39,208 nt of DNA from Jimgerdemannia flammicorona (Eukaryota). Positions 16,716 to 18,181 of the stretch are shown here, piece by piece (position 1 is the stretch's first letter; the number at the start of each line of letters is the position of its first letter). The notes under the pieces were generated by a model, which worked only from the letters and a program-made list of their open reading frames with translations, searched no databases and had not been told where the DNA came from. The translations under genes and the position numbers were made by a program. The stretch spans positions 1-39,208 of the forward strand of contig RBNJ01000148.1 in the NCBI GenBank assembly GCA_003990765.1, given 5' to 3'.

Positions 16716-17682
16716 ACTAGAAGAAGGGTGTCCCAAGGAACTATACCCTAAAGGAAGCTCCTCAGACTATTAAGACACAAGAAGATCTCATCCAAAAAGA
16801 ACATCAGAAAGCCCACCAAGGATAAGCAAATATAGAAGAAAAGTTGTGAACAATACACCAACATTGGCCCAATCTCAGAATATAAGTTTGGGATATACTC
16901 AAGAAATGTGATACCTGCCAGAAGTACCAAAGAAGGAAGAATTATCAAGCACTATTACAAACAATCATACTACCAGACAACATCTTTCAGAGATGGGGAG
17001 TAGATATAATTGGACCCCTATCAGTTACACTAAGAAGAAGTAAATATATCCTTATATTTGTAGAATAAGAACTCATCTCTGACCAAGGCACAGGATTCAT
17101 CAACAACATAATCATCAGTTATGTCTGATCCATCTCAAATAGACTGCATCATACTACCCTCAGACTAATGGTATGATAGAAAGAATGAACCAGACCATCA
17201 AGAAAGGACTTGCCTGAGTCAGTCCTACTAATTGAGACCTCTACTTACCTGAGATCCTATAGGAAATTCAGAACACCCCTGCTACCTCCACCAAATAAAA
17301 GCCATTCGAAATGATATTTGCCAAGAGAACCAGAACTACTGATCATGAGAATCTCAGAGAAATTCTCAAGAAGGCAGAACAGTTATGTAATCAGGCCCAA
17401 GTTCAGATTATCAAAGCTCAAGAAAGACAAAAGAGGTACTATGACCAGAAGCAGAAGGATCAGGAGATCAAGATTGGAGATCAAGTACTAGTTTGGAGAA
17501 GTATAATTGAGATGAATTTTGCTGCCAAATTGGAGCCAAAATGGGAAGGACCTTATCTTGTATACAATATCAGAGGAACTAGTATCTATTTAAGAAGTAT
17601 AGATAGATGAACCCTAAGGACACCAGTATACATCAACTACCTCAAGATATATCTCTCTCCATACTATGAACCAGAGAATTGA
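16712..17682 (+). pseudogene. Gypsy B integrase, apparently a separate ORF (internal deletion)
   Basis: ATG overlaps the RH stop. H-x3-H...CDTC, WGVDIIGP, ISDQG, PQTNGMIERMN and KWEGPY; no chromodomain seen. Confidence 0.88.
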
Positions 17683-18181
17683 CAATTGCCTCCAGACTCT
17701 TATCCTCAGTTCTCTCCAAGCCCTATCAGTTCCCCTGCCACAGTTCCAAGAGCCCAATAGAACATACCTCCAAAGAATCTGGATATATCAAGAAAACCTC
17801 ACTCTGGCCAAGAGACTACTTCAGATCCACCAGCTGTAGGCCTACTATACAATTGGAGAACAATTGCAGAATCTTCTCCTCTCAGACCTGGCTTATGTTC
17901 ACAATACTACTGGCCTGAACAGAAGAAATACTACTACTGCAGAAAGACTATATATAATCTACAAATGAAACTCTTCAGCTCTAATCCAGGCTCAGTTCTC
18001 TCTGAATGATCTTCAAAGAATGACCCTACCTATCTACCTCAGTATTATCCACCAAGTAGAAATCCTATTTCTTGAAGAAGATAAGGAGCCCTTAGAATAA
18101 AGTGACCCTAGTACAGACAATGAAGATGATGAGACAGGCATAGATACAGAAACAGTATATACCTATTGGGATGATGACTGA
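17666..18181 (+). pseudogene. ORF3 of Gypsy B, unknown function (~171 aa, 3 internal stops)
   Basis: MNQRIDNCLQTLILSS...AYYTIGEQL...AERLYIIY...YWDDD*. The same frame is conserved in element C. Confidence 0.7.

Follow-up and report, generated by a model that had tools for sequence, protein, structure and literature searches.

Extra open reading frames (ORFs) before the 3′ long terminal repeat (LTR) are common in LTR retrotransposons, and the cited parts of the literature leave most of them without a known function (PMC7264820, PMC5408684). Here, we describe such an ORF, the accessory ORF, in two decayed Ty3/Gypsy elements, B and C, in a 39,208-nucleotide stretch (the window) of Jimgerdemannia flammicorona contig RBNJ01000148.1. 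Plant sense and antisense accessory ORFs (aORFs), for which a regulatory role has been suggested (PMC7264820), bdelloid ORF3s (PMC5408684), and Caenorhabditis elegans CERV (PMC10309623) are likewise conserved ORFs between pol and the 3′ LTR, present in most copies, and the bdelloid lineages also carry a dUTPase (PMC5408684). They differ in being env-like, enzymatic, antisense, or spliced, and the cited sections of these papers describe no matching LTR palindrome array.

In Arabidopsis, VANC proteins of VANDAL DNA transposons bind short motifs in tandem repeats, and these motifs differ between related transposons; the cited text reports motifs of 8-9 bases and proposes coevolution of protein and target (PMC5735166). 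VANC is described as resembling MAIN (PMC13547354). As with VANC, our protein is element encoded, the noncoding element DNA carries subfamily-specific tandem motifs, and the host methylates repeats. Unlike VANC, which belongs to MULE DNA transposons and whose binding is proven, the present case concerns an LTR retrotransposon with 17-bp dyads in the unique 3′ region (U3) and involves a putative DNA-binding protein with no sequence or fold match. Foamy-virus Tas/Bel1 binds its own LTR, and its C-terminal region includes an acidic activation domain (PMC517496, PMC7828637, as far as the cited passages go). Its gene also lies after the structural genes and ahead of the 3′ LTR, and the accessory protein shares an acidic C-terminal region; however, Tas belongs to a retrovirus that has env and uses an internal promoter, no similarity between the proteins was found, and the accessory ORF is start-coupled to a stand-alone integrase. 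Transposases, too, can activate cognate copies, according to the cited portion of one report (bioRxiv 10.64898/2026.08.24.746577). The accessory protein stands outside the VANC, Tas, and other families but, by analogy, may work like VANC and Tas. Our literature search, which covered neither supplements nor repeat databases, found no description of it, and the pairing of its variants with LTR palindrome arrays is a new observation.

The accessory ORF is a selected gene with its own start

The layout of element B and the accessory ORF of element C are as follows.

~9340-19514, + strand: element B, an LTR retrotransposon
9340..10623, +: 5′ LTR of element B (start approximate)
10670..16715, +: gag-protease-dUTPase ORF, then reverse transcriptase (RT)-RNase H in the −1 frame (decayed; bounds approximate)
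16712..17682, +: integrase as its own ORF (decayed), its ATG overlapping the RNase H stop as ATGA (16712-16715)
17666..18181, +: accessory ORF of element B, subfamily g1 (decayed, three internal stops); helical core to about residue 135, then an acidic-aromatic tail
18185..18203, +: 8+3+8 inverted repeat, conserved across subfamilies, that separates the stop codon from the polypurine tract (PPT)
18209..18220, +: PPT ahead of the 3′ LTR
18221..19514, +: 3′ LTR of element B (identity with the 5′ LTR, 83.8%)
18489..18520, +: LTR TATAAA (18489) and AATAAA (18515)
24258..24768, +: accessory ORF of element C, nearest to subfamily g4, decayed further than the B copy

Two LTRs, a PPT, and the order RT-RNase H-integrase are Ty3/Gypsy features. 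When frame ends were defined by stops present in 70% or more of the long natural copies compared (up to 20), the element resolved into four frames: one of 1,510 codons, which we take from its motifs to encode gag, protease, and dUTPase; RT-RNase H in the −1 frame; integrase; and the accessory ORF. The accessory frame, named ORF3 in the original prediction, is therefore the fourth. Nor is integrase released from a single Pol polyprotein: in these copies a shared stop closes RT-RNase H, and integrase begins at an ATG of its own. That integrase forms a separate ORF had been overlooked in the prediction. The ATGA overlap recurs in the metagenome contig L061 (2791-2794) and reads ATAA in decayed copies; Pfam integrase domains were detected in copy L035. 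At positions 1310-1382 of L061, and also in L066, the end of the 1,510-codon frame is shared with RT-RNase H, which is read in the −1 frame; L061 has a G GGA AAC heptamer there that resembles a frameshift site.

A similar arrangement marks the accessory start. In subfamilies g4, g8, and g9, its ATG and the integrase stop overlap in the sequence ATGA; in g1, g6, g11, and both window elements, the ATG lies 14 nt before that stop. Of 143 copies, 121 begin with ATG and 20 with ATA, and 141 have A at −3. Restart after termination would be the simplest reading of this sequence arrangement, a subgenomic message being an alternative.

In element B, the ORF comprises 171 codons from the ATG at 17666, 14 nt upstream of the integrase stop (17680-17682), to a TGA at 18179-18181, and ends ~28 nt short of the PPT. 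This agrees with the predicted frame, opened by an ATG over the integrase end and running to just before the PPT. Element C retains it, as predicted, collinear with B over ~137 codons; its first codon is ATA, it has seven stops, and the frame slips only in the tail. Since the window is CpG depleted (0.08, and 0.02 within element B), copies decay by C>T/G>A change, the origin proposed for the internal stops. Indeed, at 168 of 173 stops in 30 copies selected by DNA search, such a change is the sole difference from a sense codon in another copy.

The ORF is abundant in the genome: a DNA search returned 1,196 candidate copies (40 scored) and a protein search 1,621, with 20 free of stops among 150 scored, a ranking that favors intact copies and in which some short contigs may repeat one copy. 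Among 55 copies, transversions per site were 0.010, 0.012, and 0.042 at the three codon positions, the third being ~4 times the first or second; integrase shows the same pattern (0.012, 0.011, 0.031). No column of the accessory frame has a stop in >80% of these copies, versus four to eight columns in each of the five other frames. Selection is also evident from dN/dS, which is 0.26 (95%, 0.13-0.43) between elements B and C and, as a net value among five subfamilies, 0.12-0.32 in 9 of 10 pairs, the tenth being saturated. These values, well below 1, bear out the proposal of a selected accessory protein. Indels in the 55 copies number 1.6 per kb, versus 16 per kb in the LTR. Frameshifts do occur: 9 of the 30 DNA-selected, decayed copies carry a net one. 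Protein collections hold 15 relatives, all metagenomic (soil) and 53-75% identical; the full-length ones have the same start and end, and in L061 the ORF follows open RT-RNase H and integrase frames. Thus, we conclude that the accessory ORF is a real, selected gene, started separately after integrase.

Protein variants are paired with LTR palindrome arrays

The region of the predicted helix carries a net charge of +2 to +6, and the last 35 residues carry −11 to −17 with three to six aromatics, in line with the acidic tail noted previously. Residues 81-90, at the start of the basic helix, are the most subfamily-specific part (difference of 0.69 between subfamilies and 0.10 within), and the tail with its terminal aromatic-acidic motif is among the best conserved. 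No transmembrane segment was found by 19-residue hydropathy (maximum of 0.62-1.36 in 7/7 open proteins; no signal-peptide predictor was run), which upholds the view that the protein is not env-like. Pfam placed no family near its cut-off for 10/10 members, hence no VANC or MAIN domain homology, and Pfam, profile, and structure comparisons gave no match to a known family or fold. DUF1016_N (PF17761) was rejected: the likeness rested on a motif pattern, with no HMM or profile match and a profile-profile probability of 0.2-0.3%. A helix-turn-helix like that of ParB/SopB-type proteins, which act on tandem palindromes, may or may not be present: the likeness was not reproduced with a better model, and there was neither a sequence match nor a CTPase domain.

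Each of seven subfamilies has its own tandem dyad array in the LTR, mostly of 7+3+7 bp, ~170-220 nt past the accessory stop and 60-100 nt upstream of TATAAA. The array and helix types are listed by subfamily.

g1: TGTGTCC-nnn-GGACACA, 19-bp unit; helix GLNRRNTTAADRLY
g4: TGTACAG-nnn-CTGTACA; helix GLTRRDTTAADRLY
g11: TGTGCAG-nnn-CTGCACA; helix GLSRRDVTAADRLY
g9: TGACAG-nnn-CTGTCA; helix GITLREARTAKXIY
g8: GGACAG-nnn-CTGTCC; helix GITRQEARTAKXIY
g12: TGTACC-n5-GGTACA; helix GLTQKNTTAIDRLY; two gene-linked copies
g6: GTACCT-nnn-AGGTAC, 16-bp unit

Three arrays lie in the window.

18330..18403, unstranded: g1-type array in the 3′ LTR of B, tandem 19-bp units of TGTGTCC-nnn-GGACACA, decayed
9449..9512, unstranded: g1-type array in the 5′ LTR of B (promoter copy), upstream of TATAAA at 9598
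24992..25026, unstranded: g4-type array in the LTR of element C, TGTACAG-act-CTGTACA, decayed

All array types are dyad symmetric, and both arms changed together between subfamilies. Arrays hold one to eight units with alternating half-sites, and dyads concentrate in the 200 nt upstream of the TATA box. Spaced palindromes exceeded dinucleotide shuffles in 5/5 groups (49 versus 9.6, 129 versus 18, 137 versus 25, 239 versus 111, and 15 versus 7.8), weakly in g1 and g6.

Of the 144 element copies examined, 135 had enough LTR to be scored (9 did not). In 124 of these 135, the type of the array corresponds to that of the helix, a pairing that the original prediction had missed. Subfamilies g11 and g12 were found only after the idea of pairing had been formed. 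The 11 nonmatching copies comprise 5 with no callable array, 5 near-ties (decayed or overlapping motifs), and 1 apparently true mismatch, L096, which combines a g8-type helix with a g9-type array. Between subfamilies, transversion divergence peaks in the helix region (0.24) and the array (0.31), and the conserved tail and PPT (0.04-0.065) separate these two peaks; integrase diverges by 0.003-0.065. Net synonymous divergence is 0.35-2.0 in the accessory ORF versus 0.03-0.30 in integrase. In a grouping test of 75 copies (at most 20 per group, out of 126), array and helix fall into the same group in 68 of the 69 copies that could be scored. Crossing between g8 and g9 was seen at ORF positions 310-420 in seven copies, in the tail in five, and in the upstream U3 in six.

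Element-free homologues and neighboring features

Two further homologues, also overlooked previously, lie on contig C2821 (L120).

4540-5019, −: open homologue 1
5424-5918, +: open homologue 2

They are arranged head-to-head and are fully open, without integrase, hairpin, LTR, or array, although one retains ~35 nt of the integrase end. They lie among host genes: CpG is normal (0.74-0.79), and the contig is gene rich, with Crinkler, hydrolase, Zn2Cys6, and caspase-BTB frames. The Zn2Cys6 and Crinkler frames, together with the occurrence of the family in soil or root sequencing runs, point to a fungal host. Among 150 scored hits, each homologue occurs once, and the next best hits are 58% and 63% identical. 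The dN/dS between the two is 0.19, a value that may predate capture, and a test for selection after capture gave no clear support for it. The pair is a candidate host capture; co-option by the host is conceivable, though we consider it rather doubtful. Between the two genes (5270-5340), a short motif recurs on C2821, C88, C164, C8028, and other contigs and is perhaps a small repeat or a shared promoter element.

Other parts of the window hold additional repeats. An element at 22280-23812, inserted in the integrase of element C, is bounded by 197-nt terminal inverted repeats (97%) and contains decayed frames resembling a transposase; it may be of the Tc1/mariner kind. Within or beside the LTR of element C (25816-26249), two 187-nt arms (91%) form an inverted repeat around a 60-nt spacer. 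A different decayed Gypsy element occupies 1609-4672 on the − strand and presumably, judging by its motifs, has a dUTPase-like frame between gag and protease. At 770-1066, a tandem array of 33-bp units has kept its CpGs despite CpG-depleted surroundings.

Possible functions of the accessory protein

With moderate confidence, we interpret the accessory protein as a putative dimeric regulator that recognizes specific DNA sequences in its own LTR and, via its tail, activates that LTR or counters its silencing. In favor of this are the dyad symmetry and joint arm changes of the seven array types, their excess over shuffles and clustering before the TATA box, the match of array with helix type, the divergence peaks at helix region and array, the charge pattern of helix and tail, and the precedents of VANC and Tas. 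It would be a ~170-amino-acid regulator of its own retrotransposon, translated by restart past the integrase stop. A dimer would read the two half-sites through the basic helix (residues 86-99), and the tail would recruit host transcription or chromatin machinery; therefore, each subfamily would switch on its own LTRs, or keep them unsilenced, in a repeat-methylating genome. The gene and U3 would form one specificity module, swapped onto a nearly shared pol. Several observations weigh against this interpretation: neighboring sequences share descent, so that the pairing could result from linkage alone; the number of subfamilies is small and they are related; two subfamily pairs share a half-site or core site though their helices differ; and structure comparison confirmed no DNA-binding fold for the protein.

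It is common for LTRs to carry palindromic enhancers that host factors bind. The arrays might thus be sites for host dimeric transcription factors, with the protein doing another job (particle component, integrase cofactor, or nucleic-acid chaperone) and traveling with the arrays through adjacency. Shared history of adjacent sequences is consistent with this, since the rest of U3, beyond the array, likewise follows the helix in its grouping (69/75 copies), as are the unconfirmed DNA-binding fold and a start coupled to integrase, which would suit an integrase partner. We nevertheless regard it as unlikely, although the strongest of the alternatives: it requires seven distinct host-factor sites that all keep one geometry in one place, and it does not account for subfamily specificity being highest at the start of the basic helix when the subfamilies have nearly the same integrase. 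It is less probable again that the protein acts on chromatin through its tail, by histone binding or integration steering, without reading specific DNA sequences. Conservation of the tail and its terminal motif, kept also in the element-free copies, would fit such a role, as would a faint, below-cut-off Pfam match (E, 0.091) between the tail of member P0027 and a histone-binding protein of Epstein-Barr virus; however, this match is compositional and at noise level, acidic-aromatic tails are equally typical of activation domains, and the array pairing is left unexplained.

The target could also be RNA, the U3 palindromes forming short hairpins at the 3′ end of genomic RNA that are bound for export, stability, or packaging, as with Tat, Rev, or C. 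elegans CERV, the last described in the cited part of its report as a retrotransposon-encoded export factor (PMC10309623). U3 is part of the genomic RNA, two-arm changes preserve pairing, and a further conserved hairpin directly follows the accessory stop. We rank this slightly below the chromatin role. A place just upstream of the TATA box, one to eight units, and alternating half-sites fit DNA enhancer arrays better, and freely varying 3-nt loops would offer an RNA reader little. A remnant env or neutral frame, suggested by the position between pol and the 3′ LTR and the decay of most copies, is highly improbable given the lack of a hydrophobic segment, the low dN/dS, and the open homologues in other samples.

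We tentatively propose, taking activation of its own LTR as the favored function, an LTR retrotransposon lineage with its own putative DNA-binding activator or anti-silencer as the last cistron of a stop-restart chain, with at least seven protein-operator pairs swapped on a shared pol and two host-captured gene copies possibly interfering with the element. If true, retrotransposons would have a counterpart to foamy-virus Tas and plant VANC, the escape of subfamilies from repeat methylation, one after another, would be explained, and a few naturally orthogonal activator-operator pairs of eukaryotic origin would become available. Whereas most additional ORFs in LTR retrotransposons have no known job, the sequence itself here appears to name the target, a 17-bp palindrome array in the promoter for each protein variant.
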